Shown here in pieces: positions 1,717 through 36,876 of a stretch of 64,000 bases of DNA (position 1 is the stretch's first letter; each line of letters opens with the position of its first letter). Position numbers and translations under genes: made by a program. Source of the stretch: Ignavibacteria bacterium. GTDB lineage: Bacteria; Bacteroidota; Ignavibacteria; Ch128b. The notes beneath the pieces are model-generated. The model ran no database searches. It worked only from the letters and a program-made list of their open reading frames with translations, and was not told the origin of the DNA. The stretch covers positions 826 to 64,825 of the forward strand of contig JAOAHM010000070.1 in assembly GCA_026415235.1 (NCBI GenBank), read 5' to 3'.

Positions 1717-2438
1717 TGAATAATGCAATTGTAATTATTCCGACATACAATGAAAAAGAAAATATAAGCAGATTGATTCCAGACATCATTGAAAAAACAA
1801 AGGGCAAAGTTGACATTTTGATTATTGATGACAATTCACCTGATGGTACTGCCGATGTTGTTAGAGAATTTCAAGAACAATATAATAATATATTTTTGAT
1901 GACAAGACCAAAAAAGATGGGACTTGGTACTGCTTATGTTGAAGGTTTTCAGTTCGCTTTAAAAAATGGATATGATTACATTTTACAAATGGATGCAGAT
2001 TATTCTCATGAACCGAAAGAGATAAAAAATTTTCTCAAACATATAAAGAATTGTGATTTAGTTATTGGTTCAAGATACAAAGGTGGTGTAAGGGTTTTAA
2101 ACTGGCCTCTTAGTAGATTATTCTTAAGTGTCTTTGCGAATTTGTATACTAAGATTATTACTGGAATGCCAATTTATGATGCAACTGGTGGATTTAAATG
2201 TTTTAGAAGAGAAGTTCTGGAAGCAATTGATTTATCGAAGATTCGCTCAAATGGTTATGCATTTCAAATCGAAATGAATTTCAAAGCTTTTATAAAAAAA
2301 TTTAGAATTTGTGAGATACCTATCATATTTACTGACCGTTATCAAGGTCAATCAAAAATGAGTAAGAAGATAATTTTCGAAGCTGCCTTTATGGTCTGGA
2401 AATTAAGAATACTCAGTTTACTTAAGATTTTGAGATAG
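1716..2438 (+). CDS. Family-2 glycosyltransferase, polyprenol-phosphate mannose/glucose synthase-like
   Basis: Motifs IIPTYNEKENI, IIDDNSPDGT, QMDADYSH. The start overlaps the upstream stop (TAATG). Confidence 0.85.
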   Translation: MNNAIVIIPTYNEKENISRLIPDIIEKTKGKVDILIIDDNSPDGTADVVREFQEQYNNIFLMTRPKKMGLGTAYVEGFQFALKNGYDYILQMDADYSHEPKEIKNFLKHIKNCDLVIGSRYKGGVRVLNWPLSRLFLSVFANLYTKIITGMPIYDATGGFKCFRREVLEAIDLSKIRSNGYAFQIEMNFKAFIKKFRICEIPIIFTDRYQGQSKMSKKIIFEAAFMVWKLRILSLLKILR

Positions 2439-2439
2439 T

Positions 2440-10710: not shown

Positions 10711-10739
10711 TTGACATTAAAAAATAAAATTTATAAAAT
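10711..10739 (+). promoter_or_regulatory. Candidate sigma70-type promoter for the first T9SS cargo gene
   Basis: TTGACA (10711-10716), 17-nt spacer, TAAAAT (10734-10739), inside the 264-nt AT-rich divergent intergenic region. The AT-rich background makes chance matches likely. Confidence 0.3.
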
Positions 10740-10874: not shown

Positions 10875-13800
10875 TTGATGAGAGTAAAATTATACTTCTT
10901 ATCAGTCGTAATTTTTTTGTTCCTAACTTCTTTTCTTTATTCACAAGATGAAGAGAGGTGGAGTAAACCAAAATTAAGATTAGAACCGGTTCAGGGAGCT
11001 AATCAAGAAGAAATTAAAATTGATTTAAATGTTCTTCAACAAGAATTACAGAAAATCCATCCGATTAGGACAATTACGAAAGATAAAACATATACAGTCT
11101 ATCCAAACATTAGAGTTTGGCCTAATGCAGGCATGACTCAGTCAGAAGTGCATATCGCTCACAATCCTAATAATCCAAATATATTATTAGGAGGATCGAA
11201 CGCTGCTAATAATTCCTCAACGGTCACTTATGTAAATCAAGGTGTATATGTAACTACAAATGGTGGCCAAACTTGGTTTGGAACTGACTCGCTTCCAGGA
11301 ATTCCTTCAGGGTTCTACCGTTCTGATCCAGTTGTTGCATTTGACCATTTAGGAAACATGTATTTCAATACTCTTGAATATAGTTCTACAGCAGGTGACC
11401 TTGTTACATTAAAATCTACTAACAATGGTTTAACATGGCCAATCAAAGTTGCGGTTCCGAACCCAGGTATTGATGAAGATAAGAATTGGATTGCTATAGA
11501 TGTCAATCCATCCTCACCATATCGAGGTTATATTTACACTGCTTACACTGAATTTCAAACAACAGATCCAAATTATAGAAGATTGGAGTTCTCTCGCTCA
11601 ACTGATGGTGGTTTGACTTTTTCAGCTCCAATCAATATGAGTGGAACTGCTGGCTATTTACATCAAGGAGTAAACTTAGCTGTTGGTACCAATGGTGATG
11701 TAGTTGCAGCTTTTACTCATTATCCAACAAGTACTTTAACAACCTCTCATGTTGCATTTGCAAGGTCAACTGATGGTGGATTAACTTGGACGCAACAACT
11801 TGTAGTTCAAAACATAAATGATATTAGAGGTAACCTTACAAAAGGTGGTAATACAATTCGTGTTAATTCGTTCCCATATATTGCGGTAGACCACAGCAAT
11901 GGACCGAGAAGAGGTTGGATTTACATTACATATGCAGCTCGTCCAGCAACTGGACAACCACCAGATGTATATTTGGTAAGATCAACTAACTTTGGTCAAA
12001 CTTGGTCAACTCCTATTAAAGTAAATTCAGAGCCTGCAAATCGTGACCAATGGTTCCCAGCAATAGCAGTTGATCCTGCAGATGGATCAGTAAATATTGT
12101 TTATTATGATAGTAGAAATTATCCAAATAATGACTCAACAGAAGTTTATCTCTCAAGGTCTTTAGATGGTGGCGTTACTTGGGAAGATATAAAAGTTTCA
12201 GATCGTGCATTTTTACCAAGAGCTATCGCTGGTCTTGCTACTGGTTATATGGGTGATTACATTGGTATAACTGCAAGAAATGGAGTTGTTTGGCCATTCT
12301 GGAATGACAATAGATTAGGATATCATCAAGCATATACGGCAAAAGTATTTTTCATTCAAATCAATCACACCAAACTTCCGAATACAGAAAATCTCAATGG
12401 ACCATATACAGTTCGAGCGAAGATAACTGGAAGTGTTGGAATTCAAGAAGCTAAAGTTTTCTGGAGAAGAGGTACAACAGGGGCATTTGATTCATTATTA
12501 ATGACAAGAGTTGCAGCAGATAGTTTTGTTGCAAACATTCCAGGAAATGGGCTACCTGCGATCTATCAATATTACATTTATGCAAGAGATAGTGTAGGAA
12601 GTTTTGCAACACTACCAGGTGGAGCACCGCAAGACATTTTCCAATTTGAAGCTGCAGCTGATAACCAACCACCAGTAATAACTCATACTGTATTAGGAAA
12701 TCAATATCGAGAATTATGGCCTCCACAAGTAACTGCTACAGTTACGGATAATATAGGTGTTGACTCAGTATGGGTTGTATTTAAGGTAAACACACCTGGT
12801 ACACTTAGACAGTTTAGACTTAATCCTCAAGGTAACAATCAGTATGCTGGTAGCTTTAACATTAGCTCAAGTCAGTTGAATGTTGGGGATACAATCTATT
12901 ACAGAATCATCGCAAAGGATTTAGCAACAAATCCTAATTTTGGTTATCATCCGAGCTCGACAGGATTTAATAGCTTCAGAATCATACCAGATACTGAATT
13001 CCCTGTAATTAATCATACAGCTCTAAGGGATCAACCTTTTATTAGATGGCCTGCTGTAATTAGAACAAATGTAACTGATAACATCGGTGTTGATAGTGTA
13101 TGGGTTGAATGGTATAAAAATACACCAGCAAATCCAAGAAGATTTAATTTAGTAAACTTAGGAAATAATAATTGGGAAGCTCCATTCAATTCAGATACAT
13201 CTCAAGTTGCAATTGGAGATTCAATCTTTTATAGAGTTGTAGCAAGAGACATTTCATTGAGTCAAAATATCACTTACTTACCAACTTCTGGTTATTATAA
13301 ATTTAGAATAATTCAAACACGTGGACTTGTGTTGGTAATTGATGATGATGTAAGTGAACTTGAAAGAATAAGTCCTGAGAAGGGACAATTCAAAGCAGAT
13401 TTAACTGCACCATTAGGAGCCTCGGCAAATCTATTTAAAGCAACTTTAGATAGCCTTGGTTACCTTGCAGATCTTGTAACATTTGCGAATTTCGATACAA
13501 GTCAGGTTTATAATTATGATATTGTAATTTTGAGTGCTGGTGCTAAAACATCATCAATATTTAATGATCAAGGTAAACGAGATGCTATTAGAAGATTTGC
13601 AGCTCTTGATGGTAAAAAGACCTGGGTTGAGGGTGGTGAAGTCGGTTACTTCTTCCGTTCAACTGGAACTAATGATCAATTATTCAGACAACAAGTTTTA
13701 TTTACTGATACATGGGTAAGTGATGCAACAACAGCAACATTAGTCCATAAGTTACCAACTCATCCAATTAATACAACGCCTAATGCTATTCCGAATAATG

Positions 13801-16800
13801 TTGCATTCACTGGAACTGGAATTGGTGTAAGGGATGCTATGAGAGTATTATCTGGTGCAAGAGTTTATCCTGTGAGTGCCTGGTCAAGTCATCCAGATAG
13901 TGGTGGTGTAATTGTACGAGATAAAACTCCAAATCCAACCAGTGCTGATAATATATTCTTTACTTTCAACATTGCAGCAATTACTGATCAATCTATTGCA
14001 AGAAGGTTAATTGAGAATACAGCTGAATATTTAATGGCCCGTGAACAAGCACCATTAGGAAGAATTTCTGGAACAGTAACACTTCAGGGTGCAACTAATC
14101 ATGGTGGTGTGACAGTTGTATTAACAGGAACAGCAAACAAAACAACAGTTACAGCTGCTAATGGTTCTTATTCATTTGACTCTCTGTATAATGGACCATA
14201 TCGAGTTACAGTAAATGCACCTGCTAACTGGTTCCCATATACTCAGTTCAAGGATACTTCAATTACTTCAGCTAATCATGTTTCTGGAATTAATTTCACT
14301 TTTGTACCTTTAGTTAAGGGAACTATTAGCGGTCAGGTTCTATTACAAGGTCAGACAAATCATAGTGGAATTTTAGTACAAGTAATAAATCAACCTGGAA
14401 AAGAAGCTTTGACTAATGCAAGTGGTAATTATCAAATTACCGATGTTAATCCAGGACAAGTTATTGTAAGATTCTCTAAACAAGGTTATGGTAGTCAAAC
14501 AAGAGATACAGTATTAGCTAATGGTGGTTCGCTTGTTTTGAATACAACTTTAACTCCTTCATTAGGGAATGTTTTGATTATTGATGACGATGTCGCTGAA
14601 AAAGATAGAATAAATCCAGAAAAACCAGGTGAAGTAGATTTAACAACACCACTTGGTGCTTCAGCAACATTATTTAAGAGTGTCTTAGACTCATTAGGTT
14701 ACAATACAACATTAGTTTCTTTTGCTTCATTAGATACAAGTACATTAAACAATTATGAACTTGTAATCCTTTCTACAGGTTCAAAATCGACTAATATCTT
14801 TAATGATGCTGGAAAACGAGCTGCTATTAGAAGATATGCAACAACTGTTGGTAAAACATTAGTTGAAGGTGGAGAAGTAGGTTACTTCTTCCGTTCGACA
14901 AGTACAACAGCAGACTCGATGTTTAGAAAAGAAGTATTGCATACAGGTGCATGGGTAAGTGACGCTACTACTTCAACATTAAGAAAAAGAATTGCAGACC
15001 ATCCTATTTGGAATGTTCCAAATTTATTACCAGATAATATTGCATTCACAGGTACTTCAATTTATACAAGAGATGCAATGCGAGTTGACCCAGCTCCAAA
15101 GCGTGTTTATCATGCAGGAACATATAGTGCCTTCCCAGACAGTGGTTCCATTGTAGTGCATGATAAAAATGCAAATCCAGCAAGTGCCGATAACATATTC
15201 TTTACCTTCAATATTGCTCAAATTACTGATCAATCTTTAGCTAGGAGATTAATAGAGAACACAGTTAAATATCTTTTCAATGTCGAAACCGCGCCATTAG
15301 GAAGAATTTCAGGAACTGTTACTTTGCAAGGTGCTCCGAATAGTGGCGGTGTTGAAGTAAGATTAAGTGGTACAGTTAGCAAAGTTACTTATACAGCACC
15401 AAATGGAGCATATAGTTTTGACTCATTGTATGCTGGACCATACAGAATAACAGCGATTGCACCAACTGGATGGTTCCCATATCAACAAGTTGTTGATACT
15501 ACTGTTAGTGCTGGTCAGCAAATTAGTAACATTAATTTCACGTTTGTACCTTTAGTGACTGGTACTATAAGTGGTCAAGTGCAATTGCAAGGTCAAACAA
15601 ACCATTCAGGTGTTGAAGTACGAGTACTTAATCAGCCAGATAAAGTTACAACTACAAATGCTGCTGGAAACTATACCTTAACAGGAGTCAATCCTGGAAA
15701 CTTGACAGTCCAATTCAAAAAACAAGGATTTAAGACAACGAGACGAGATGTTGTCTTACCAAATGGTGGAAGCGTCACGGTTAATGTTACAATGCCAGTG
15801 ACCTTAGGTAATATTCTTGTAATTGATGATGATGTATCTTATGAGGGTAGAGTATCAAATGAGAAAAACGGTACTTTTGATTTGACAAGCCCATTAGGAG
15901 CTTCAGCTAATCTATTTAAGGCGACCTTAGACTCTTTAGGATATAACGCTGACTTAGTTTCATTCAATAATCTTGATACTACAATATTAATGGATTATGA
16001 TTTACTACTGCTTACAGCAGGACCAAAGACAGGAGTACAATTCAATAATCAAGCATTAAGAGATGCTATTAGAAAATTCGCAAACACTCCTGGAAAGAAA
16101 ACATGGGTAGAAGGTGGTGAAGTTGGTTATGCTTATCGTTCAACTGGTACTAATGATCAATTATTCCGTCAACAAGTATTGTTTACTAACACATGGATAA
16201 GTGATGTTACTAGTGGTTTGTTAAACAAGAGAATCGCATCACATCCAATTAACTCCAACCCGAACTTAATACCAGATAATTTAGCATTCGCTGGTACAGG
16301 TATTGGTGAAAGAGATGCAATGACAGTCATGCCTGGTGCTAGAGTTTATCCAGTTAGTGCTTGGTCAACATTACCAGATAGTGGTGGTATTATCGTAAAT
16401 GATAAGAATGCAAATCCATTAAGTGCTGATAATGTGTTCTTCACATTTAACATAGCTGGAATGACCGATCAATCTTCTGCTAAGAAATTGATTGAAAATA
16501 CTGCTAAGTATTTATTCACTTACGAACCACCACCGACAGGAGCTATATCTGGTACTGTAAGCTTAAGCGGTTCAAATACAAATGCTGGTGTTACTGTTAA
16601 ACTTTATTCATTACCAGGAAGCTCATTGTTAAATACGGTTGTGACTGATTCAACTGGTAGATATATCTTTGGTGGATTGTATTCAGGTCTCTATAGAGTT
16701 GAAGCTACTCCTCCAACAGGATTTTATCCTGCTGTTGCAACAAGAGATACTTCAGTTGGAACTGATACTGTAAAGAATTTCAATTTCACTTTCATTAATG

Positions 16801-17921
16801 TAAACACACCACAAAGTGTAACCTTCTCAACTACTTCAGGATGGAATTTGCTCTCAGTTCCAGTAAAGCTAACGAATATGAGTAAAGGTAACTTATTCCC
16901 GAACTCAGTATCCAATGCATTCAATTATAGTGATGATTTGGGTTATATTAAGCATGATACTCTAAGAGTTGGTTCTGGATACTGGTTGAAATTCAATCAA
17001 CAACAACAACATACCTTCCAAGGACCAGTAGATTATGTGCTGAATATTCCAGTTAAGAGAGGTTGGAACTTGATAGGTGCTGCTTATAAGTCAGTACCAG
17101 TTGCAAGTGTATCTACAACTCCAGCTGGTATTATTCAATCTCCATTCTTTGAATATTCAGGCAATTACTCTCAAGCTACTAATTTAGTACAAGGTAAAGG
17201 ATACTGGGTCAAAGTTAGTCAAAATGGTACACTAACTTTGAGAACGACTTATCCAAAAGAATTACCGAAGAATATTTATGTTGAAACCATAGACGAAAAA
17301 TGGCCATCAATTTTGATTACTGATGCAGATGGACAGCAAATGAGATTATACTTAACTACTGATATGACTAATTATACTTATGAGTTACCTCCTGTTCCTC
17401 CAAATGGTGCATTTGATGTCCGTTTCAATACTGATAAATATGTTGAAGATGCGTCAGTTGGTAATTATGTGATTTCTCTAAATTCAGTAAAATATCCAAT
17501 TCAAATTAAATTAGAGAATTTTGAAGAAGGTGCAACTTACAAATTAACAGATGGATTTGATGGAAGAATTTATGAAGATATTATAAGAAATGGTGAAGTT
17601 AAAGAAATCGCTAATGCTCAATTAACTCAAATTCAAATTGCAAAAGTTGAAATACCTAAACAATTTGAATTAAGTCAGAACTATCCGAATCCATTTAATC
17701 CATCTACAATAATCAAGTTTGGATTACCGGAGAATTCGAGAGTTAAGTTGGAAATTTATAATGTGTTAGGTGAGAGAGTTGCAACTTTGATTAATAGTGA
17801 TTTGAAAGCAGGTTATTATGTTGTCAATTTCGATGCCTCCAATTTAACTTCTGGAATTTATTTCTACAGGATTGAGACATCGAATTGGAATGATGTAAAG
17901 AAGATGATATTAATTAAGTAA
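10875..17921 (+). CDS. Giant T9SS cargo protein P1: BNR/Asp-box six-bladed propeller, three Ig-like modules, three ~414-aa tandem units, shared C-terminal cassette, Por CTD
   Basis: AGGAGG at 10868-10873. ATG at 10878 is the likely start (the ORF track uses TTG at 10875). Signal peptide VVIFLFLTSFLYSQ. Six Asp-boxes: TTNGGQTW, STNNGLTW, SRSTDGGLTF, ARSTDGGLTW, RSTNFGQTW, SRSLDGGVTW. C-terminus: [14 protein letters not shown]...GIYFYRI...KKMILIK. Confidence 0.9.
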   Translation: MMRVKLYFLSVVIFLFLTSFLYSQDEERWSKPKLRLEPVQGANQEEIKIDLNVLQQELQKIHPIRTITKDKTYTVYPNIRVWPNAGMTQSEVHIAHNPNNPNILLGGSNAANNSSTVTYVNQGVYVTTNGGQTWFGTDSLPGIPSGFYRSDPVVAFDHLGNMYFNTLEYSSTAGDLVTLKSTNNGLTWPIKVAVPNPGIDEDKNWIAIDVNPSSPYRGYIYTAYTEFQTTDPNYRRLEFSRSTDGGLTFSAPINMSGTAGYLHQGVNLAVGTNGDVVAAFTHYPTSTLTTSHVAFARSTDGGLTWTQQLVVQNINDIRGNLTKGGNTIRVNSFPYIAVDHSNGPRRGWIYITYAARPATGQPPDVYLVRSTNFGQTWSTPIKVNSEPANRDQWFPAIAVDPADGSVNIVYYDSRNYPNNDSTEVYLSRSLDGGVTWEDIKVSDRAFLPRAIAGLATGYMGDYIGITARNGVVWPFWNDNRLGYHQAYTAKVFFIQINHTKLPNTENLNGPYTVRAKITGSVGIQEAKVFWRRGTTGAFDSLLMTRVAADSFVANIPGNGLPAIYQYYIYARDSVGSFATLPGGAPQDIFQFEAAADNQPPVITHTVLGNQYRELWPPQVTATVTDNIGVDSVWVVFKVNTPGTLRQFRLNPQGNNQYAGSFNISSSQLNVGDTIYYRIIAKDLATNPNFGYHPSSTGFNSFRIIPDTEFPVINHTALRDQPFIRWPAVIRTNVTDNIGVDSVWVEWYKNTPANPRRFNLVNLGNNNWEAPFNSDTSQVAIGDSIFYRVVARDISLSQNITYLPTSGYYKFRIIQTRGLVLVIDDDVSELERISPEKGQFKADLTAPLGASANLFKATLDSLGYLADLVTFANFDTSQVYNYDIVILSAGAKTSSIFNDQGKRDAIRRFAALDGKKTWVEGGEVGYFFRSTGTNDQLFRQQVLFTDTWVSDATTATLVHKLPTHPINTTPNAIPNNVAFTGTGIGVRDAMRVLSGARVYPVSAWSSHPDSGGVIVRDKTPNPTSADNIFFTFNIAAITDQSIARRLIENTAEYLMAREQAPLGRISGTVTLQGATNHGGVTVVLTGTANKTTVTAANGSYSFDSLYNGPYRVTVNAPANWFPYTQFKDTSITSANHVSGINFTFVPLVKGTISGQVLLQGQTNHSGILVQVINQPGKEALTNASGNYQITDVNPGQVIVRFSKQGYGSQTRDTVLANGGSLVLNTTLTPSLGNVLIIDDDVAEKDRINPEKPGEVDLTTPLGASATLFKSVLDSLGYNTTLVSFASLDTSTLNNYELVILSTGSKSTNIFNDAGKRAAIRRYATTVGKTLVEGGEVGYFFRSTSTTADSMFRKEVLHTGAWVSDATTSTLRKRIADHPIWNVPNLLPDNIAFTGTSIYTRDAMRVDPAPKRVYHAGTYSAFPDSGSIVVHDKNANPASADNIFFTFNIAQITDQSLARRLIENTVKYLFNVETAPLGRISGTVTLQGAPNSGGVEVRLSGTVSKVTYTAPNGAYSFDSLYAGPYRITAIAPTGWFPYQQVVDTTVSAGQQISNINFTFVPLVTGTISGQVQLQGQTNHSGVEVRVLNQPDKVTTTNAAGNYTLTGVNPGNLTVQFKKQGFKTTRRDVVLPNGGSVTVNVTMPVTLGNILVIDDDVSYEGRVSNEKNGTFDLTSPLGASANLFKATLDSLGYNADLVSFNNLDTTILMDYDLLLLTAGPKTGVQFNNQALRDAIRKFANTPGKKTWVEGGEVGYAYRSTGTNDQLFRQQVLFTNTWISDVTSGLLNKRIASHPINSNPNLIPDNLAFAGTGIGERDAMTVMPGARVYPVSAWSTLPDSGGIIVNDKNANPLSADNVFFTFNIAGMTDQSSAKKLIENTAKYLFTYEPPPTGAISGTVSLSGSNTNAGVTVKLYSLPGSSLLNTVVTDSTGRYIFGGLYSGLYRVEATPPTGFYPAVATRDTSVGTDTVKNFNFTFINVNTPQSVTFSTTSGWNLLSVPVKLTNMSKGNLFPNSVSNAFNYSDDLGYIKHDTLRVGSGYWLKFNQQQQHTFQGPVDYVLNIPVKRGWNLIGAAYKSVPVASVSTTPAGIIQSPFFEYSGNYSQATNLVQGKGYWVKVSQNGTLTLRTTYPKELPKNIYVETIDEKWPSILITDADGQQMRLYLTTDMTNYTYELPPVPPNGAFDVRFNTDKYVEDASVGNYVISLNSVKYPIQIKLENFEEGATYKLTDGFDGRIYEDIIRNGEVKEIANAQLTQIQIAKVEIPKQFELSQNYPNPFNPSTIIKFGLPENSRVKLEIYNVLGERVATLINSDLKAGYYVVNFDASNLTSGIYFYRIETSNWNDVKKMILIK
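12660..13319 (+). repeat. Two tandem 110-aa (330-nt) Ig-like units inside P1
   Basis: Unit 1 is 12660-12989 (DNQPPVITHT...VTDNIGVDSVWVVF...YYRIIAKD). Unit 2 is 12990-13319 (DTEFPVINHT...VTDNIGVDSVWVEW...FYRVVARD). Confidence 0.85.
13320..16800 (+). repeat. Three tandem in-frame units inside P1: 13320-14561, 14562-15803 (414 aa each) and a truncated third at 15804-~16800
   Basis: Each unit opens with an (L/V)(L/V)(V/I)IDDDV-type motif and has an alpha/beta-looking ~270-aa part (PLGASANLFKATLDSLGY, WVEGGEVGYFFRS, ADNIFFTFNIA..TDQS.A..LIENTA.YL). CarboxypepD_reg-like beta-sandwiches follow (GRISGTVTLQG...GVTV...NG.Y.FD.LY.GPYR.T). Units 1 and 2 have two sandwiches and unit 3 has one. Confidence 0.9.
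16839..17918 (+). other. Shared C-terminal cassette, copy in P1
   Basis: Twin GWNL...GYW[LV]K module at 16839-17240. ELPPVPPNGAFDVRF at 17382-17426. T9SS CTD at 17664-17918. Confidence 0.85.
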
Positions 17922-17955
17922 TAGCTATATGACTTATACTAAAAATTTTAATTCA

Positions 17956-17996
17956 GTTAATTCCCCGTGCATTCATGTTGAGTGCACGGGATTAAC
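17956..17996 (+). other. Strong intergenic stem-loop between P1 and P2, with no U-tract
   Basis: GTTAAT(TC)CCCGTGCA pairs with TGCACGGGATTAAC: 14 bp with a 2-nt bulge. It can extend by 3 more pairs (TTC/GAG) to leave a 5-nt loop. The flanking sequence is A-rich (ACAAAAAG), not T-rich. Confidence 0.6.
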
Positions 17997-18021
17997 ACAA
18001 AAAGTAAATAAAGGAGAGTCT

Positions 18022-21000
18022 ATGAAAAAATTACTTCTATCTCTTGTTCTTCTTGTAACATTCGCAACAATGGCATATAGCCAGTATGCCGAAAGTTTCT
18101 TTACTTCTAATCCTAACTACAAACTTGAATTAGAAAGGTCGGGTAGTAATTTTATTTCAATACCTGCTTCTATTAATTACAAACCACTTGGTGTGATTAA
18201 TTGGTCAGAAGGATTTGAAGGAACAACATTTCCACCGACTGGTTGGTCGGTTCATCAATTAGATGGTGGTACTCAGACTTGGGTTAGATACACAACAACT
18301 CCAATATTTGGAACAGCTTCGGCAGCGGTTAGATGGGAGTCAACTACCTTAGCCAATGATGATTGGTTAGTTACTCCACAATTTCAGGTAAATGCAGGTG
18401 CATTCTTGAATTTTTATGCAAAGAGACAATCAACTTCTTTCTTTGACTCAGTTGAAATTTATTATTCAACTACAGGTGGCGTTCCACCTTCGGGATATAC
18501 AAGGATTACGACTGTAATGCCTCAGAGCACAACAACTGGTGAATTATTCCAAGTATCGTTAGCTAGTTTAGCTGGTCAGAATGTTAGAATTGCTTTTAGA
18601 TACAAAGAATTAGATCAATTCAGGATTTATCTTGATAGTATTTATGTTGAAACACCTGTAACTCTTGATGCGGGTATTTCTGCCATAAATAAACCAGGCT
18701 CATTAGAAACAACATTAGGTACTGCACCACAAATCGTAGTGAGGAATTTTGGTGCAAATCCAACGGGTCCATTTACTGCTACATTAACAATACAACCTGG
18801 TGGATATTCTCAAACAGTTAATGTTAGTTCGTTAAATAGTGGTGCAAGTGTTACATTAGATTTACCACAATGGACACCAACCTCAAAAGGAACATACACG
18901 GTTACTGCTTATACTTCTTTAAGTGGTGACTTAAATCCACAAAATGATACTCTAAGAAAAACTGTTGTGGTATTGGAAGAATTACAGCGTGATTTCACTC
19001 ATAATGTTTCAAATATCTTCCCAGCAGTTTCGCTCTACGGTGTTGAATTCGATGGTAATTACTACTACATGACGAAATGGAATGAAAACAAAATTTATAG
19101 ATTGAATAAGGCTGCAACAGTATTAGACTCATTTACAATTTCTGGGCTTTCTTCAACTGTAGGAATTCGTGATTTAGCTTGGGATGGTCAATATTTATAT
19201 GGTAGTAATGCTTCTACTACAGTATATAGAATAGATATTTCAACATTTACGGCCACTCCAGCATTTACTTCACCTGTTGTTGTTAGAGGTATAGCTTATA
19301 ACAAAGCAAGTGATGCCTTCTGGGTATCTAACTGGAATACAGATTTAAGATTGGTTAGCAGAACAGGTACGAATTTACAAACAATTACTGCTGCAACACA
19401 TGGTCTTACTGGTATGTCTGGTTTAGCATATGATACTTTAACTACTGGTGGACCATATATTTGGGTTTTGGATGGTGGCTCTGATGTAGCTCCAAAAATT
19501 TTATATAAAATTAGAGCATCAAATGGTGCAAAGGTTGATAGCTTTTTGATTACTCATCACTTGCCAACAGGTGCAATTGGTGGTGGTGTATTTTGTTCAA
19601 ATCAAGTAATTCCTGGAGTAATAACGCTTGGTGTTCTCAACCAAGGTACACCACACTTAATTAATGGATATAGAATTGGTGGTGCACAAGTACAAGGTAC
19701 TATTTCTATATTGTATCCGATGGGTGGTGAAAATATTTTGGTGAATTCAAAACAAATAGTTGTGTGGAAATCTGCAAATGTACAAGGTAATGTTAATATT
19801 TTAGTTTCAACTGATAACGGTGCAACTTGGCAACCATTAGCTACAAATATTCCAAATACTGGTTTCTATTCAGTTACAGCTGCACCAGCTCCAGTTAACA
19901 ATGTAAAAATTCGAGTTGTGTCTGTAACTACTCCAACTGTATTTGGTGAAAGTCAAGCATTCAATATTGTATCTGGTACTACACCAGAAGTTGATTTCCC
20001 ATTAGTCGTTTCAGATGGAACTTATGCAGAAGGTTTGAGAACTGGATTACATCCAACTGCAACAGATGGAATTGATACACATTTAGGTGAATTTGAATTA
20101 CCACCTTCACCACCAACTAGTGTTTTTGATGCTCGATTGATTGGTTCAGATATAGGAATACCTCAACTTGGTAACGGTGTTTTAAGAGACTATCGTCAAG
20201 GTTCATTGACCTTTAATGGTCAGAAAGTACACGAACTTAAATTCCAAATGAGTTCGTTGGCTAGACTAACTTCATCGAATATTACAATTTATTGGGATTT
20301 ACCAAGTAATGTAACTGGAAGATTGCAAGATATAGTTACTGGTAATATCATTGATGTTCCAATGTCTGGATTAGGTTCTTATACTGTTTCAAATCCATCA
20401 TTATACAACAAATTAAAAGTTACTTATACATATACCTACACTCCACCTGTAACTGGTACAATCAAAGTTCTTTATCCTAATGGTGGAGAGGTTATTAGGA
20501 AAGGATCTGGTATTGTTGTAGCGTGGAATTCGAATGTTCCAGGTTTGGTTCGACTCTTAGGGTCGACTGATGGTGGAAATACTTGGGTATTACTAAGGGA
20601 TAGCTTGCCTAATACAGGTGTATTTGGAGATGTCATTAGTACAACAACACCAGAAAGCAACCAATGGAGAGTTAGAATCCAAAGTATAGGTAATCCAACA
20701 ATCTTTGATGATAGCGATGGTAATTTCACAGTTCAAGGTAACAAGTTAGTTTATATTGATAATCCATTTGTGATTTCTGATGGACAATCAAGTGTAGGTT
20801 TGTATTATGGTATCGATCCAAATGCAACAGACGGTATTGATTTAGCACTCGGTGAAGCTGAATTACCTCCACCTCCTCCAACAGGTGTATTTGATGGTCG
20901 TTTCATTGGAGCTGATATCGGTGTCCCACAATTAGGTCAAGGTACTTTAAAAGATTACAGACAAGGTGGAGCAACATTTAGTGGTAATAAAATTCATGAA

Positions 21001-26169: not shown

Positions 26170-26208
26170 TTCAGAATCATTGAGATTGCACAATGGTTCG
26201 ATCAAAGT

Positions 26209-26232
26209 GAAAGCCCGTGAATTCGGGCTTTC
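26209..26232 (+). terminator. Rho-independent terminator after P2
   Basis: GAAAGCCCG (26209-26217), 6-nt loop, CGGGCTTTC (26224-26232), followed by GCTTTAATTAAT. Confidence 0.8.
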
Positions 26233-26257
26233 GCTTTAATTAATAAGATAAATTATT

Positions 26258-29107: not shown

Positions 29108-29125
29108 TAGTCCATAGAGGTTAAT

Positions 29126-31138
29126 ATGAAAAAATTTATTCTTTCACAAATCCTTGCATTAGTACTTTTATCTTTTGTAAATCTATATTCTCAATCTCCA
29201 GAAATAATTCAACTTATTAATAAGGTTAATAAAGATTCTTTAACATTATATCTTCGCCAATTATCAGGTGATACAAGTTGTGTAATTGGTGGAGCTCCAT
29301 ATACGATTGTATCAAGACATAAAAATCAACCTGGTAATGATAAAGCGGGTCAATATATTTATGAAAAATTCCAATCCTGGGGTTATCAAGTTCAATACGA
29401 GAGTTTTAGTTCAACAGGAAAAAATGTGATTGCCACGAAGCCGGGATTATTTGATAGTCAAAAATATTTCATCGTTTGTGCTCACTATGATGACATGCCT
29501 TCTGGTACAACTGCACCTGGCGCAGATGATAATGCAAGTGGTACTGCAACAGTCTTAGAATTAGCACGAGTATTTGCTCAACATAATTTTAATTATACAA
29601 TTAAGTTTATGTGTTTTGATGAAGAAGAACAAGGTTTAGTCGGCTCTAATTATTACGCAACACAAGCAAGAAATAGAAACGATTCAATTATTGGTGTAAT
29701 AAATCTTGATATGACTGCCTACGATGCAAATAACGATGGTATGGTTGATGTTCATTCAAATAGTGTTGCAAACACTGCTCAAATTGCAAATGAGTGGATT
29801 AATAATATTAGTCAATATGGTATCGCTCTAACTCCAAGAACGGTTGCTTCACAACCTTACAGTGATCATTATAGTTTTCAACAAAAAAATTATGGAGCTA
29901 TTCTTGTTATTGAGTATGATTTGGAATTCAATCCAAGATATCATACTGTAAATGATAAAATTCAATACTTGAATATGAATTATGCTCATAAGATTGCTCA
30001 AGTCACAGCTGCGACTGCTGCTGAATATATTCAAATTGTTAATTCTAATACTGCTACATTCTTAACGAATTCAGGTTGGAACTTAATTTCCATTCCAATT
30101 AATCCAGCAGATGGGCGAAAATCGGTTTTATTCCCTACAGCAATCTCCTATGCTTATGCATACGATGGTTCCTATGTTATGCGAGATACTTTGCAAGTTG
30201 GTAGAGGGTACTGGCTCAAATTTAATTCAAGTCAAAACCATTCAATTTCTGGTCAAACGATTACTAACTTACAAATACCATTGAAACAAGGATGGAATTT
30301 AATTGGAACACTAAACGGAGTTATACCAGTAAATTCAATTACAACTAATCCACCAAATATCATCGCAAGTTTATTTTTCGAATACAATGGTGGATATTCT
30401 CAAGCTCAGCAACTTGAAAAAGGAAAAGGTTATTGGGTAAAGAGTTCTCAAAATGGAATTCTAAATCTTTCTTTAACAGGAAAATCAATTGCATCGAGTA
30501 ACTCACAATTAGTTAATTCAAAATATATATTATTATTTGAAACGGATAATGCGACTCAGAAATTATATCTCACCGAAGAAGTGTTGAATAAAGAATTTTA
30601 TGAAATGCCACCTGAACCACCCACCGGAGTTTTCGATGTAAGGTTTGCTGATAATTATTTAGTCAACAATCTTTTTACTGATGAATGTTTAATTAAAATA
30701 TCTTCGAATGGTAAACCAATCAATGTAAATTTGTTGAGTAGTAACGAAAGTGAACAAATTCAACTTAATTATTATTCCAATGGTAACTCTTATAAAATAG
30801 TTGTATCAAATAATCAAAAATTTGCTCTTCCAAGTGATGTTAGTTACATCAAAGTAAAAAAACTTTCTCAACCAAAAGAGTTTGTTTTGTCACAAAATTA
30901 TCCCAACCCATTCAATCCAAAAACAACTATTAACTTTAAATTACCAGAAGATGCAAAAGTTACATTAAAGGTTTATGATATTCATGGAAGAATAGTTGAA
31001 ACACTAATTGATGAGAATAAAAACGCTGGTAACCACTCAATCAATTTCGATGGTTCTAAGTATTCAAGTGGAATTTATTTTTATGAACTAAGTGCAGGTA
31101 AATACAAAGCAATCAAAAAAATGATGTTAGTTAAATGA
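29126..31138 (+). CDS. T9SS-secreted M28-family aminopeptidase P4 with the shared C-terminal cassette
   Basis: Signal peptide. M28 zinc-ligand motifs: CAHYDD, GADDNASGTATVLELAR, FDEEEQGLVGS, INLDM, YHTVND. It starts 18 nt after the P3 stop. Por CTD at the end. Confidence 0.9.
   Translation: MKKFILSQILALVLLSFVNLYSQSPEIIQLINKVNKDSLTLYLRQLSGDTSCVIGGAPYTIVSRHKNQPGNDKAGQYIYEKFQSWGYQVQYESFSSTGKNVIATKPGLFDSQKYFIVCAHYDDMPSGTTAPGADDNASGTATVLELARVFAQHNFNYTIKFMCFDEEEQGLVGSNYYATQARNRNDSIIGVINLDMTAYDANNDGMVDVHSNSVANTAQIANEWINNISQYGIALTPRTVASQPYSDHYSFQQKNYGAILVIEYDLEFNPRYHTVNDKIQYLNMNYAHKIAQVTAATAAEYIQIVNSNTATFLTNSGWNLISIPINPADGRKSVLFPTAISYAYAYDGSYVMRDTLQVGRGYWLKFNSSQNHSISGQTITNLQIPLKQGWNLIGTLNGVIPVNSITTNPPNIIASLFFEYNGGYSQAQQLEKGKGYWVKSSQNGILNLSLTGKSIASSNSQLVNSKYILLFETDNATQKLYLTEEVLNKEFYEMPPEPPTGVFDVRFADNYLVNNLFTDECLIKISSNGKPINVNLLSSNESEQIQLNYYSNGNSYKIVVSNNQKFALPSDVSYIKVKKLSQPKEFVLSQNYPNPFNPKTTINFKLPEDAKVTLKVYDIHGRIVETLIDENKNAGNHSINFDGSKYSSGIYFYELSAGKYKAIKKMMLVK
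30074..31135 (+). other. Shared C-terminal cassette, copy in P4
   Basis: Twin module at 30074-30469. EMPPEPPTGVFDVRF at 30602-30646. CTD at 30881-31135. Confidence 0.85.
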
Positions 31139-31171
31139 TCAAAGTAATTTTTATTAAACAATGGTGCTTCT

Positions 31172-34100
31172 ATGAAAAAAGTAACTTTATTTTTCGGTGT
31201 TTTATTTATTCTATTAAATCTTGGGTTAGCTCAATCGAATAAATATGCAAAGATTAAACTTAATCTTTCTGGTATAAGCGATTGGGAAAAATTACTCATC
31301 TCAGGTGTTGATATTCATTGTCAACTTGATAAGAAAAATTTGGATAAACCTGAGATTTGGGTTTCCTATGATGAAATGAATGAATTGAAAAAAGTAGGTT
31401 TAAGTTTTGAAATTATTATTTCTGATTGGGAAAATTACTACAAACAACAAAAGCAGAAAGATTTTGCTGATGAACAATTTTACCGAGAGAAATTTGGTAT
31501 TCAAGGTTTTCATTTTGGTTCAATGGGTGGATTTTACACTTTGAACGAGATTGTGGCAGAATTAGACTCAATGAAGTTACTCTATCCAAATTTAATAACA
31601 GAGAAAGTTTCGATTGGTAATTCGATAGAAAATAGACCAATATGGATGGTTAAGATTTCAGATAATCCAGATTTAAATGAAAATGAACCACAGGTTTTAT
31701 ATACAGCACTTCATCATGCTCGTGAGCCGCAAGGAATGATGACTGTGATTTATTACATGTATTATCTTTTAGAAAGATATGGCATTGATCCAGAAGTTAC
31801 TTACTTAGTGAATAATCGTGAAATTTATTTCATTCCTGTAGTAAATCCTGATGGATATGAATATAACAGAACGACAAACCCAAACGGCGGAGGAATGTGG
31901 AGAAAAAATAGACGAAATAATGGAGGTAGTTTTGGCGTTGATTTAAATAGAAATTATGGTCCTATGGCTTATTGGGATGCACCGAACGGTGGTTCAAGTA
32001 CATCTCCAAGTTCTGAAACTTATCGAGGTACAGCACCATTTAGTGAACCTGAAACAGCAGCAATCCGAGATTTTCTTTTAACTAAGGGAATCAAAGCTTG
32101 CTTAAATTATCATACTTATAGTAATCTTCTCATTTACCCTTACGGTGCGTTGAGTCGAGAAACTCCAGATTCGCTTATCTTTAGAGAATTTGCTCGAGAT
32201 ATGACAGCTTATAATGGTTATGTATATGGAACAGATATGCAAACAGTTGGTTACTCAACTCGTGGTAACTCAGATGATTATATGTATGATGGAGAACCTG
32301 TAAGCATTAGACCAAAAATTTTCGCAATGACTCCTGAAGTTGGTAGTTCAACTGATGGTTTCTGGCCTAACCAATCTCGTATCTATCCTTTAGCTATTGA
32401 AAATTTAAGACCAAATATTTATTACACATGGATTGCAGGTGAATATCCAAGCATTGCTTCAAAAACATTACAATCATCCAAAGGATATTTTGGACGAGGT
32501 GATACTATTAAGTTTATTGTAGAATTAAAGAATAAAGGTTTAGGTCATGCCTACAATGTGGGATTGAATTTTGAATCACTTTCGCCACATTTAACGATTA
32601 TAAGTAATGCTAACTTCTTCTTTGATACATTACTTTCAAGGTCAAGCAAGTCAAATCAAACAAACCCAGTTTTAATTAAAATATCGAATACAGTTCAAAA
32701 TGGTTCAAAACACCGTGTTGTGGCTAAAATTAGTTTAAATGGAACAGTTTTAATTTCAGATACAACCACAATCCTTGTGGGACAACCAACAGTTATAGTG
32801 TCTGACAATTTTGAAAGTGGTTTATCAAATTGGCAAACAACAAATACTTGGGGATTAACTCAAACTCAATATTATTCTCCAAACAATTCATTGACTGATT
32901 CACCTTCAGGAAATTATCCTAACAATGCAAATACTTATGTCAATCTAAATACTTTAATTGATTTAACTCAATCGAATGCAGCCACACTTGAATTTTGGAC
33001 TAAATGGGATATCGAAACAGGTTGGGATTTTGCTCAAGTTCGAATTTCAACTAATAATGGTTCAACTTGGATTCCATTGAGAGGTAAATATACTAAGAAT
33101 GGTTCAGGCAAAGGAGTTCAACCTGCAAATGAACCTGGTTATGATGGAACTCAAACTACATGGGTTAAAGAAGAAATGGATTTAACACCATACTTAGGTA
33201 AAATTTTAAGATTGCAATTTCTGTTAAAGAGTGATGGCTCTGTTCAAAAAGATGGTTGGTATATCGATGATGTAACGGTTAAAAGTTATCAAGTCACTTC
33301 AGGTTTAATTACATCAACATTTAATACTAATGCAGGATGGAATTTAATTTCGGTTCCTTTAATCGTTGAAGATTTTAGAAAATCAATTCTCTTTCCAACT
33401 TCTGTTTCTTACGCTTATTCATTTGACAATGGTTACATTGCTAAGGATACTCTGAAAAATGGCGAAGGATATTGGTTGAAATTCAATTCATCACAAGAAC
33501 ATACTCTAAACGGTTTAGATTTACCAAGTTTAAATATAAATCTTAAATCAGGTTGGAATCTGATTGGAAGTGTTAATGGAAATGTTTCTGTTTCATCATT
33601 AACCACAAATCCACCAAACATCATTCAAGGACAAATCTTTGGTTATAATAATGGATATCAACCAGTTAATTTACTGGAAAAAGGTAAAGCATATTGGGTT
33701 AAAAGTTCTCAACCAGGTACACTGACTTTGAACACAACTTTTTTGAAAGAGAGTGAAACTGTTAATGTCAAAAACGCCAATTTAATTTTGTTAAATGGAG
33801 ATGGACAACAATCTAAATTGCGCATCACTGATGATATAAACGAGCATCGTTTTGAGCTACCACCAGTTCCGCCATCAAAAATTTTCGATGCAAGATTTAA
33901 TGATAACTCATTTAATTCACATTTTGAGAATGAAGCAATAATAAATCTTAGTGGTGTTGTTCCTCCAATTAAAATCACTCTTTCAGAAAATTTAAATTCC
34001 TTATTTAGAATTACTGATTTATTTGATGGAAAGTTTGTTGATGAAGTGTTAAGCTCAAATAAGGAAGTGATAATAAATCAAAATATTAATCAATTAAAAA

Positions 34101-34387
34101 TTACTCGTTTAGAAAAACTTGTTTATACATTTGATTTAAGCCAAAATTATCCAAATCCATTCAATCCAAGTACCTTCATTAATTTTTCACTTCAATCCAG
34201 AACTAAAGTGAAGTTAATTGTTTATGATGTACTTGGAAATGAAGTTGCAACTTTAATTGATAATGAATTAGAAGAAGGGAAACATACCGTTAAATTTGAT
34301 GGAAGTCAGTTAGCATCTGGTGTTTACTTTTATAAACTAATAACTGACAAATTTACAGATATCAAGAAGATGGTTTTAATGAAATAA
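31172..34387 (+). CDS. T9SS-secreted M14-family zinc carboxypeptidase P5 with a MAM-like domain and the shared C-terminal cassette
   Basis: Signal peptide. M14 motifs: LHHAREPQG (HxxE), [22 protein letters not shown]/Ig-like region follows. The jelly-roll-like domain reads [11 protein letters not shown]...[16 protein letters not shown]...DGWYIDDV. Por CTD at the end. Confidence 0.9.
33335..34384 (+). other. Shared C-terminal cassette, copy in P5
   Basis: Twin module at 33335-33730. [15 protein letters not shown] at 33854-33898. CTD at 34124-34384. Confidence 0.85.
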
Positions 34388-34390
34388 TTC

Positions 34391-34411
34391 AAGCCCCAGT
34401 TTTTGGGGCTT
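34391..34411 (+). terminator. Rho-independent terminator after P5
   Basis: AAGCCCCA (34391-34398), loop GTTTT, TGGGGCTT (34404-34411), followed by TATTATTTT. Confidence 0.8.
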
Positions 34412-34452
34412 TATTATTTTAAATTATTCTACACCAATAGAGGTATTCTGCC

Positions 34453-36876
34453 ATGAGGAAAATTTTTATTATTCTTTTACTTTTAACGGTAAATAGTCTT
34501 GCACAATTTCCAAATATTCGAGTAAGCCAACCATCAAGCACCGACCCAAATGAAACAAGCATTGCTATCAATCCGCTTGATACAAATAATTTAGTCGCTG
34601 GTGCAAACATTAGATATTATTACTATTCAACCGATGGTGGGTACACTTGGACACAAGGTAATTTAACATCACCACTTGGAGTTTGGGGTGATCCATGCGT
34701 TGTATTTGATTTGAATGGTCATTGTTATTTTGGCCATCTCTCAAATCCATCAAGCGGTGGATACTGGATTGATCGAATTGTAGTTCAAAAATCCACAAAC
34801 AAGGGAATTACTTGGTCAAGTGGTGTTGGAATTGGTTACAATCCACCAACTCGTAATCAAGATAAAGAATGGTTAGCAGTAGATTGGACCAACAGCCCTT
34901 ACAGAAATTATATCTATGTTGCTTGGACTGAATTTGATTCTTATGGCAGCTCCAATCCTCTCGACTCCACAAGAATATTATTCTCTCGTTCGACGGATGG
35001 AGGTTTAACTTGGTCTGCTCCCGTTAGAGTAAGTGATAAAGGTGGAGATTGTATTGATGAAGATAATACAGTTGAGGGAGCAGTGCCAGCAGTTGGACCA
35101 AATGGTGAGGTATATTTAGCCTGGGCTGGTCCACTTGGGTTGGTTTTTGACAAGTCTACAAATGGTGGTCTAACTTGGGGAGTTGATAAAGTTATTACTT
35201 CAATTCCAGGTGGATGGGATTTTAGTGTTCCTGGGATTTATCGCTGTAATGGATTGCCCATAACTGCTTGTGATATAAGTAATTCACCTTATCGAGGAAA
35301 TATTTATGTAAATTGGTCGGATCAAAGAAATGGTACAAATAATACGGATATCTTTTTTGTGAAATCAACGGATGGAGGAAATACTTGGAGTGCTCCCAAA
35401 AAGGTTAATCAAGATAATACCCAGACCCATCAATTTTTTACTTGGATGACGGTTGATCCTGCCACAGGTTATATTTACATCGTTTATTATGATAGACGAA
35501 ATTACACCGACAACCGCACTGATGTGTATCTGGCACGCTCCACTGATGGTGGTGAAACATTTACGGAATTCAAAATTTCGCAAACTCCTTTCACTCCAAC
35601 TGCTTCGGTTTTCTTTGGAGACTATACTGGAATTGCTGCATTGAATGGAAAAGTTTACCCAATTTGGACACGAATGGATAACGGACAAAGGAGCGTTTGG
35701 ATGGCAATTTTTCAGGATACAATCCGTGCTCAACCAACTTCCACTTTTTACCTAAGCGATGGTTGGAATTTACTCTCTGTTCCACTGAAGAGACAAAACA
35801 TGTTCTATAAAGATTTATTCCCTGGTTCAAATTCATTTGCATTCACTTATGATAATGGATATCAGAGAGAAGATACACTAAAAGTGGGGACAGGATATTG
35901 GTTGAAATTTGTAGTCCCTCAAAATGTCACACTTACTGGAACTCAACAAAATCAAATTTCTATCAATTTGAAGAGTGGATGGAATTTGATTGGTGGATTA
36001 AATGGAATCATTCCAACAAATTCTGTTCAGACCAATCCACCAGGAATTTTAGCTACACCATTTTATGAGTATAATCAAGGATATTCAGTAGCAAATCAAA
36101 TAGTAAAGGGGAAAGGATATTGGATTAAAGCGAACGCACCTGGTCAATTAATTCTAAGTATTTCAGGATTGACGAAAGGAAATGTTAACGAAAACATAAA
36201 TTATGATTACTTTGGAAGAATTGAATTTAGCTCTGATTTTTACAAATCCAAAGTCTATATTTCAGATAAAGTTATTGACAAATCATTTTTTGAATTACCA
36301 CCAAAACCACCTTCGAATATTTTTGATGTTAGATTTGATGATGAAACAAATTTAATTTATTTAGGTGAAGAAAAATTAATCACAGTTCAAACTGAAAATT
36401 TACCTGTGAAAATACAACTTAAAGGTAATGGTTCAATAAATTCTGTTTTAATCAAGTTCTTGTCTGGTAAAAATGTTGAGTTAAAATCAGACGAACAATA
36501 TTTAATTAGTAATCGTGATGAACTAAATTTCATCATATCAACGAAAAAAAATAGTCAGTCAACTGAAATATCACCAACTAACTTTAAGATGTCTGAAGTA
36601 TTTCCAAATCCTTTCAACTCTGTTGCTAAGATAAGATTTTATATTCCACGCAATGAAAATACAAACGATTACTTGGTTGAATTTCGATTTTATGATTTAC
36701 TTGGAAGATTAATTTCAACTGATTTTATTACTGTAAAATCAGGTTATCATGAATACACTTTTGATGCAAGTAGATTTAATCTAACTTCTGGTTTGTATTT
36801 TTGCGAGTTGATCGTACAAGATTTAACGACAAAAAAATTCTATCGTGAACTAAAGAAGATGAATTTTATTAAATGA
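34453..36876 (+). CDS. T9SS-secreted BNR/Asp-box six-bladed propeller protein P6 (sialidase-superfamily fold) with the shared C-terminal cassette
   Basis: Signal peptide (LLLLTVNSLAQF). Asp-boxes: STDGGYTW, STNKGITW, SRSTDGGLTW, KSTNGGLTW, KSTDGGNTW, ARSTDGGETF. The N-terminal part parallels P1 (FPNIRVS versus YPNIRVW). The Por CTD is divergent (VFPNPFNSVAKIRF...GLYFCEL...KKMNFIK). Confidence 0.9.
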   Translation: MRKIFIILLLLTVNSLAQFPNIRVSQPSSTDPNETSIAINPLDTNNLVAGANIRYYYYSTDGGYTWTQGNLTSPLGVWGDPCVVFDLNGHCYFGHLSNPSSGGYWIDRIVVQKSTNKGITWSSGVGIGYNPPTRNQDKEWLAVDWTNSPYRNYIYVAWTEFDSYGSSNPLDSTRILFSRSTDGGLTWSAPVRVSDKGGDCIDEDNTVEGAVPAVGPNGEVYLAWAGPLGLVFDKSTNGGLTWGVDKVITSIPGGWDFSVPGIYRCNGLPITACDISNSPYRGNIYVNWSDQRNGTNNTDIFFVKSTDGGNTWSAPKKVNQDNTQTHQFFTWMTVDPATGYIYIVYYDRRNYTDNRTDVYLARSTDGGETFTEFKISQTPFTPTASVFFGDYTGIAALNGKVYPIWTRMDNGQRSVWMAIFQDTIRAQPTSTFYLSDGWNLLSVPLKRQNMFYKDLFPGSNSFAFTYDNGYQREDTLKVGTGYWLKFVVPQNVTLTGTQQNQISINLKSGWNLIGGLNGIIPTNSVQTNPPGILATPFYEYNQGYSVANQIVKGKGYWIKANAPGQLILSISGLTKGNVNENINYDYFGRIEFSSDFYKSKVYISDKVIDKSFFELPPKPPSNIFDVRFDDETNLIYLGEEKLITVQTENLPVKIQLKGNGSINSVLIKFLSGKNVELKSDEQYLISNRDELNFIISTKKNSQSTEISPTNFKMSEVFPNPFNSVAKIRFYIPRNENTNDYLVEFRFYDLLGRLISTDFITVKSGYHEYTFDASRFNLTSGLYFCELIVQDLTTKKFYRELKKMNFIK
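35761..36873 (+). other. Shared C-terminal cassette, copy in P6
   Basis: Twin module at 35761-36156. ELPPKPPSNIFDVRF at 36292-36336. CTD at 36583-36873. Confidence 0.85.

Follow-up and report, generated by a model that had tools for sequence, protein, structure and literature searches.

Six consecutive type IX secretion cargo genes of an Ignavibacteria bacterium and an uncatalogued twin-repeat domain family in their shared tail

Analysis of a 64,000-nucleotide (nt) stretch of DNA from an uncultured Ignavibacteria bacterium (metagenome-assembled genome; 66.3-kb contig JAOAHM010000070.1, positions 826 to 64,825; hereafter the window) indicated that six consecutive + strand genes, g1 to g6, at window positions 10875-36876, form a conserved, probably co-transcribed set of surface proteins with the features of T9SS (type IX secretion system) export. 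Five of the products (g1 and g3-g6) share a colinear tail, or cassette, of 350-371 amino acids (aa) behind their different N-terminal regions (heads). The tail comprises a twin module in which GWNL...GYWxK occurs twice (tw), a beta domain with an ELPPxPP motif (PP) and a type-A C-terminal domain (CTD). Judged from sequence, the tail is three separable modules that have been shuffled independently, and tw is a new, very large domain family uncatalogued in Pfam, NCBIfam and the PDB. With a probability of roughly 40%, we interpret tw as a head-independent, non-catalytic binding or retention module that would hold secreted hydrolases at the surface of the producer.

An earlier note on this DNA, made from its letters alone, had described six adjacent same-strand genes encoding 8,560 aa over 26.0 kb, and its coordinates and lengths were reproduced (2348 + 2715 + 949 + 670 + 1071 + 807 aa over 26,002 nt). 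The genes, which are separated by gaps of 100, 88, 18, 33 and 65 nt, are as follows:

10875..17921, + strand: g1, 2348 aa, signal peptide, BNR_2, CarboxypepD_reg/SdrD_B repeats, tw-PP-CTD (Pfam, cassette profile)
18022..26169, + strand: g2, 2715 aa, choice-of-anchor J, BNR/Sortilin-like propellers, three PP domains, CTD, without tw (Pfam, NCBIfam, PP repeats)
26258..29107, + strand: g3, 949 aa, S8 subtilase, tw-PP-CTD (Pfam, cassette profile)
29126..31138, + strand: g4, 670 aa, M28 aminopeptidase, tw-PP-CTD, MCX8057325.1 in NCBI (Pfam, NCBI)
31172..34387, + strand: g5, 1071 aa, M14 carboxypeptidase and InhA-like MAM, tw-PP-CTD (Pfam)
34453..36876, + strand: g6, 807 aa, BNR/sialidase-like propeller, tw-PP-CTD (Pfam)

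The heads named in the earlier note agreed with the Pfam assignments, including BNR_2 in g6 as well as in g1. The array encodes an endopeptidase, an aminopeptidase and a carboxypeptidase, i.e., three peptidases among six products, together with three propeller or repeat proteins. The g2 open reading frame (ORF) opens at 17929, and the start used here, as chosen previously, is that of the signal peptide at 18022. The listed start of g1 is a TTG at 10875; the ATG directly after it, at 10878, may be the true start. NCBI already holds four of the five array proteins that were looked up (MCX8057323, MCX8057325 to MCX8057327).

Each product had been credited with a signal peptide and a type-A CTD, and both attributions held. 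The profile PF18962 (Por_Secre_tail) matched all six proteins at 28.7-50.6 bits (cutoff 27) and TIGR04183 matched five; g6 was the weakest on PF18962 and had no TIGR04183 match. By eye rather than with a predictor, the N-termini of all six have the n-h-c organization of type-I signal peptides. Based on these profile matches, all six are members of the type-A CTD cargo class, and exactly six genes of the window carry a CTD:

10875-10950, 18022-18090, 26258-26330, 29126-29195, 31172-31235 and 34453-34510, + strand: signal peptide regions of the six genes
17661..17918, + strand: g1 type-A T9SS CTD (Pfam, NCBIfam)
25909..26166, + strand: g2 type-A T9SS CTD (Pfam)
28838..29104, + strand: g3 CTD (Pfam)
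30878..31135, + strand: g4 CTD (Pfam)
34127..34384, + strand: g5 CTD (Pfam)
36580..36873, + strand: g6 CTD, divergent, with inserts (Pfam)

No component of the T9SS machinery was found within the 64-kb window. The system has been suggested to occur in Ignavibacteriae (PMC5837995), and Por sorting domains have been described in Melioribacter, as have Por-tailed carbohydrate-active enzymes (CAZymes) with carbohydrate-binding modules (CBMs) (PMC3534657). Each of the six signal peptides terminates in (S/A)-Q (LYSQ, AYSQ, AWSQ, LYSQ, GLAQ and SLAQ), with Gln as the predicted +1 residue, and several homologues likewise have Gln at this point (YAQ, FSQ). The "Q-rule" (Gln at +1) has been reported as specific to Bacteroidetes, "not the entire FCB group" (PMC5837995).

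The tail directly before the end of five proteins was reproduced in its copies, order and segment lengths, with pairwise identities of 33-47%. It runs from a twin module of 132-134 aa through a spacer of 41-47 aa, a 15-aa motif (E[LM]PPxPPxxx[FL]D[VA]RF) and a variable segment to the CTD; the length of the variable segment, 80-87 aa here and 75-82 aa in the earlier note, hinges on the chosen CTD start. A profile of the cassette matched the five copies at E 1e-119 to 1e-129, far beyond chance, and found no further full copy in a six-frame translation of the window. An AlphaFold2 model of the g4 tail (66-sequence alignment; mean pLDDT 94, pTM 0.85) was all-beta and consisted of three blocks, with tw at residues 1-150, the PP domain at 163-275 and the CTD at 285-366, and a pTM of this size suggests that the three domains are arranged in a defined way. 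A Foldseek search of the whole cassette against the PDB was uninformative, as it gave only generic tandem immunoglobulin (Ig)-like beta-sandwich arrays at TM of about 0.2.

The tw module is also predicted to be all-beta. Alignment of half A with half B in hhalign (99.3%, E 1.5e-20) indicated that it is a true internal duplication, and the g4 copy folded alone with AlphaFold2 was modelled with confidence. The copies in the window are:

16839..17240, + strand: g1 tw, aa 1989-2122
28052..28447, + strand: g3 tw, aa 599-730
30074..30469, + strand: g4 tw, aa 317-448 (AlphaFold2 pLDDT 96, pTM 0.89)
33335..33730, + strand: g5 tw, aa 722-853
35761..36156, + strand: g6 tw, aa 437-568

The earlier note had recognized no named family in the cassette outside the CTD and had proposed profile searches, AlphaFold and Foldseek as a check; these confirmed its assessment. 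The non-CTD parts had no match in Pfam at E<=10 or in NCBIfam at E<=0.01, and tw had no PDB sequence-profile match at E<=10. The confidently predicted tw fold had no significant PDB neighbour by Foldseek (best E 0.059, all TM<=0.29) and was not Ig-like in that search; we dismissed as noise the weak matches to tandem cNMP-binding domains, bicupins and double jelly-rolls. We also rejected, at the level of sequence, the idea that tw is a divergent CTD, as hhalign of the tw halves against the Por CTD gave a probability of <=0.3%, and the PP domain was likewise unrelated. Literature searches on the motifs and on T9SS in Ignavibacteria did not find an earlier description.

One clear fold match to tw was obtained, to the BFVD entry A0A8D9C8P8 (Foldseek E 1e-6, TMq 0.75, rmsd 3.3 A, 18% identity). 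This is a 587-aa protein labelled "putative hemin binding protein" of an uncultured marine phage, a name that we assume may derive by transfer from HBP35-type T9SS cargo. The entry could stem from bacterial T9SS cargo that was mis-binned, or a phage may truly have acquired the gene; no phage genome was matched when tw was searched by tblastn.

The spacer, motif and variable segment had been listed as separate pieces. Their lengths stood, but in the g4 tail model they form a single beta domain, PP, of about ten predicted strands with ELPPxPP in a confidently modelled coil, and this fast-evolving domain is mostly reduced to a junction of about 35 aa in relatives. The separation of the 2715-aa g2 protein from the other five was right in that g2 lacks tw and incomplete in that it carries three PP-domain copies, with motifs at aa 692, 947 and 2392. 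These copies are longer than those in the cassettes and homologous to them (hhalign 98.2%, E 5.7e-14), so that the PP domain and the CTD are common to all six genes, and tw to five. The PP domains are:

17265..17660, + strand: g1 PP domain, aa 2131-2262, with ELPPVPPNGAFDVRF at aa 2170-2184 (nt 17382-17426)
19954..20451, + strand: g2 PP repeat 1, aa 645-810, with ELPPSPPTSVFDARL
20719..21207, + strand: g2 PP repeat 2, aa 900-1062
25054..25536, + strand: g2 PP repeat 3, aa 2345-2505
28472..28837, + strand: g3 PP domain, aa 739-860
30494..30877, + strand: g4 PP domain, aa 457-584, about 10 predicted strands
33755..34126, + strand: g5 PP domain, aa 862-985
36181..36579, + strand: g6 PP domain, aa 577-709

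Two features of the g2 repeats are missing from the cassette copies: a G(L/I)xPxATDGIDxxLGE segment just before ELPPxPP and an insert of about 20 aa, IGxPQLGxGxLxDYRQG. The long g2-type form also opens P0050, an Ignavibacteriaceae protein with the order pp-tw.

In most relatives, tw and the CTD (ct in the architectures below) are joined by a conserved linker of 29-45 aa, in which the PP element is the short junction and ELPPxPP is kept. The order in this form is tw, 14 aa, nRIrIvPT.ELPPpPP, about 18 aa (range 14-28) and NYPNPF, and the motif was present in 81 of 88 tw-ct linkers. The long form of the window proteins reads tw, about 43 aa, (F/Y)ELPPxPPsGiFDVR, about 90 aa and CTD. ELPPxPP was absent before the CTD in about ten CTD-bearing ORFs of the same genomes that have neither tw nor PP, which indicates that the motif accompanies tw or the PP domain rather than the CTD itself. 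A search with the PP profile against a word-indexed protein database gave one match; it was sensitivity-limited, and little weight is placed on the distribution of PP.

When 1.84 billion representative proteins were searched exhaustively with a hidden Markov model of tw, the matches comprised 14,900 clusters (at 50% identity) with E<=1e-3, 7,487 with E<=1e-10 and 3,458 with E<=1e-30. The source names read either "hypothetical protein" or "T9SS type A sorting domain-containing protein" and nothing else, and came from metagenome-assembled genomes (MAGs) of Ignavibacteria, Ignavibacteriae or Bacteroidota. A scan of GTDB species genomes found at least 61 loci, nearly all in MAGs of Ignavibacteria, Ignavibacteriales or Melioribacteraceae and with several copies per genome; these counts are lower bounds, since the scan was queried with four window copies and restricted to two peptide patterns. 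No cultured strain turned up among the tw carriers in this pattern-limited scan or in the source names. Weak relatives with a single repeat were found in Sulfurovum, Verrucomicrobia, Desulfobacterales, Fibrobacterota and Thiovulum; most have no CTD, and the clearest examples have the unit elsewhere than at the C-terminus (N-terminal or internal in Sulfurovum, Verrucomicrobia and Thiovulum).

The cassette had been proposed to act as a single device, a view that the architectures of 140 newly retrieved top representatives did not support, as its modules shuffle separately:

tw-ct: 64/140
tw alone: 38/140
tw-pp-ct: 18/140
pp-tw-pp-ct: 7/140
others (multi-tw, pp-tw, etc.): 13/140

In the retrieved representatives tw invariably formed the final globular domain, with the CTD or the end of the protein directly after it, and many of the tw-alone proteins end within 5 residues of it. 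Among 252 proteins sorted into three main architecture classes, 68 had tw without a CTD. The suggestion that the module is independent of its head was borne out by 55 Pfam families among 72 proteins, a range that extends over peptidases, nucleases, phosphatases, lectin-like domains, propellers and Ig arrays. Por_Secre_tail alone was widely shared among these proteins (47/72). At one locus (L062:4171-9377), three adjacent genes encode S8-tw, Omp28-tw and EEP (nuclease/phosphatase)-tw, all without a CTD; the trio adjoins an ASH/HYDIN Ig-array gene that has one. Among other fusions, tw was joined once to Cohesin (PF00963; P0337, 299 aa) and in three cases (P0321, P0329 and P0336) to the Fibrobacter succinogenes major paralogous domain (PF09603).

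Conservation within tw was comparable in all three classes. The signature residues of both halves (W-N, S-P, Y and G-x-G-Y-W-x-K) were as invariant in tw-only proteins (n=68) as in those with a short (n=91) or a long junction (n=93), and about 40% of tw positions were near-invariant, polar N, S and K included. Across these 252 proteins we found no tw residues conserved only alongside a PP motif in cis. The equal invariance across architecture classes indicates that the constraint is intrinsic to tw.

The array order and the head-tail fusions are kept in four or five species-level related genomes. In CALDZP010000052.1 the order is g1-like, g2-like, S8, M28, an extra M1 peptidase with tw-pp, M14 with MAM, and BNR; similar arrays occur in CAZGQO010000001.1, DYIJ01000016.1 and CAYVTW01. 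The extra gene, an M1-family aminopeptidase between the M28 and M14 genes, is present at L003:4107-6437 (CALDZP010000052.1) and also in L002 and L004, which indicates that array membership varies and order is kept. The duplication had been taken as old and maintained by selection, and the comparisons agreed: cassettes group by head type and not by genome, with orthologues 50-76% and paralogues 33-47% identical, and the DNA of paralogous cassettes has only patches of 24-78 nt in common. The fusions are therefore old and show no concerted evolution; recent amplification or gene conversion was rejected because the tree follows orthologues and DNA repeats are lacking. Constraint between orthologues was higher for tw than for the CTD in most comparisons and well above that for the PP domain:

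Head: 70-93% orthologue identity
tw: 61-76% orthologue identity
CTD: 48-74% orthologue identity
PP domain: 32-48% orthologue identity

The overall plan of the array proteins, with signal peptide, functional head, beta domain(s) and C-terminal type-A CTD, is that of gingipain RgpB-type modular cargo (TIGR04183/PF18962), and the novelty is the domain family and the junction motif inside this known kind, modular T9SS cargo. RgpB has a catalytic domain, an Ig-superfamily (IgSF) domain and a CTD, whereas the array proteins have tw and PP before the CTD; in addition, unlike in gingipain-type cargo, tw is also found without any CTD, and neither of these two modules has a relative in Pfam, NCBIfam or the PDB. 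Listeria GW modules, choline-binding repeats and SLH domains resemble tw as tandem C-terminal repeats with invariant Gly-Trp and aromatic motifs on diverse surface enzymes. However, those systems are Gram-positive and bind teichoic acids or secondary cell-wall polymers, whereas the Ignavibacteria bacterium of the window is diderm. There was no Pfam match of GW/SH3b type at E<=10, and none of the 50 best Foldseek PDB matches of tw was SH3-like.

We favour tw as a surface binding or retention module because it is head-independent, C-terminal, tightly constrained and present without a CTD. In the mechanism we propose, the type-A CTD would drive export through the T9SS, and tw would bind a common envelope or extracellular ligand, with the envelope of the producer favoured, through W/Y/K/N sites that recur pseudo-symmetrically in both halves. 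The PP element would link tw to the anchoring end as a rigid stalk or junction, in the form either of the short ELPPxPP junction or, in the window genes, of a junction expanded into a fast-evolving beta-sandwich spacer. The diversity of the heads makes a single substrate-specific ligand unlikely. Several points weigh against a retention role: no ligand, partner or localisation of tw has been observed, the conserved aromatic and polar residues could be either exposed or buried, and the symmetric conservation of the two halves could simply reflect a requirement of the fold. Nor do the CTD-less tw-only proteins have an evident route across the outer membrane. The one clear fold match, A0A8D9C8P8, is itself uncharacterised, and as the fold searches covered the PDB and BFVD, a characterised structural relative may exist.

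A different ligand is perhaps the strongest of the alternatives, although we consider it unlikely: tw could be a CBM- or adhesin-like module for binding substrates or particles, tethering enzymes to detrital polymers or to the cell walls of prey. Accessory binding modules are typical of secreted hydrolases, as in the Por-tailed CAZymes with CBMs of Melioribacter (PMC3534657), and both the aromatic-rich invariant motifs of the two repeats and the position of tw as the terminal domain of nucleases and phosphatases would suit such a role. The heads, however, have proteins, nucleic acids and phosphoesters as their substrates or are not enzymes, and glycoside hydrolases did not stand out in the top 25 head families. 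Comparison with CBMs gave no Pfam match, and the only CBM-like entry in the Foldseek list, 8wc1, was weak (E 0.9, TM 0.15).

We give less credence still to tw and ELPPxPP as an aid to T9SS secretion or processing, whether as a folding handle before the CTD, like the gingipain IgSF domain, or as a context for PorU recognition or attachment. The location of tw immediately before the CTD in most members (tw-ct 64 and tw-pp-ct 18 of 140) is consistent with such a function, as are the fixed distance of 14-28 aa between nRIrIvPT.ELPPpPP and NYPNPF and the pTM of 0.85, which suggests that tw, PP and CTD pack together. Many tw proteins nevertheless have no CTD at all, and the N-terminal or internal repeat units of Sulfurovum, Verrucomicrobia and Thiovulum are in phyla and positions unrelated to T9SS. 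The CTD-bearing ORFs that lack tw and PP also do without ELPPxPP, and tw and the CTD have no profile similarity.

Dockerin-like co-assembly, suggested in the earlier note and taken here as an aromatic cradle of tw that would bind the ELPPxPP of other cargo in trans with g2 as the scaffold of a surface multi-peptidase complex, appears improbable. The array does resemble the cellulosomal dockerin-cohesin system in having a duplicated C-terminal module on many enzyme heads and, in g2, several copies of a second shared module, and tw-only enzymes could piggy-back on anchored cargo. The coupling of tw to ELPPxPP is tight (81/88 linkers; absent before other CTDs), and g2, with its three PP domains, lies inside the array. 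However, a dockerin is a Ca-binding helical pair of roughly 70 aa (repeats of about 22 aa), whereas tw is 132 aa and predicted to be all-beta, and no Dockerin_1 (PF00404) or Cohesin profile matched the cassette (Pfam, E<=10). Also unlike dockerin-cohesin systems, the array proteins are presumably anchored through the T9SS. Every tw-CTD cargo already has its own motif in cis, the tw residues are equally conserved in tw-only proteins, and the body of the PP domain evolves fast. The bolder form of this idea is similarly doubtful: tw and ELPPxPP would be a receptor-ligand pair of aromatic cradle and polyproline-II segment by which T9SS cargo and tw-only enzymes assemble on one another with g2 as scaffold or, in a variant, tw would itself be a new outer-membrane targeting or anchoring signal that can replace the CTD. 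If true, the receptor-ligand pair would imply a cellulosome-like "proteolysome" coat on a diderm surface, built on a domain pair unrelated to cohesin and dockerin.

An inert tail, made of generic beta-sandwich stalks and passed on as domains were duplicated and shuffled, would fit the low identity of the PP domain (32-48% between orthologues with heads at 70-93%) and the generic Ig-like matches of the whole cassette, but there is little chance that it describes tw. By Foldseek tw is not Ig-like, many of its polar and aromatic residues stay invariant throughout thousands of clusters, and numerous small proteins keep it as their only C-terminal domain.

The best sigma-70-like promoter match of our scan lies upstream of g1, and no terminator-like site was found in the array gaps scanned up to 30000; co-transcription of the six genes is plausible.

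10711..10739, + strand: sigma-70-like promoter, TTGACA-17-TAAAAT, 11/12 (consensus match only)

The array is flanked by housekeeping or envelope-polysaccharide genes. Its last stop codon, that of g6, overlaps the start of fmt (methionyl-tRNA formyltransferase, 36873-37802) by 4 nt (ATGA, 36873-36876), and because of this overlap the array may be transcriptionally or translationally coupled to the downstream housekeeping genes. Envelope-polysaccharide genes nearby (616-4419, 8180-9631, 44818-45903 and 53233-54579) encode a DegT aminotransferase, a GT2/sugar-transferase fusion, a Polysacc_synt flippase, a GT9 heptosyltransferase and a UDP-glucose dehydrogenase. These surroundings may be a coincidence and would be relevant if tw binds a surface glycan. 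Other neighbours are a speD-speE fusion ORF (37865-38935; AdoMet_dc at aa 9-113 and spermidine synthase at aa 123-351) and, divergent from g1 on the - strand (9657-10610), a gene for a class-A beta-lactamase-like protein.

Ignavibacteria are widespread organotrophs of sediments, springs and bioreactors, and tw marks a large share of their secreted and surface proteome. A family definition for tw would allow consistent annotation of thousands of "hypothetical" proteins. Knowledge of the tw ligand would account for the way in which these bacteria hold extracellular peptidases, nucleases and phosphatases at the cell, and it would show whether T9SS cargo use a second, non-covalent principle of attachment or assembly.

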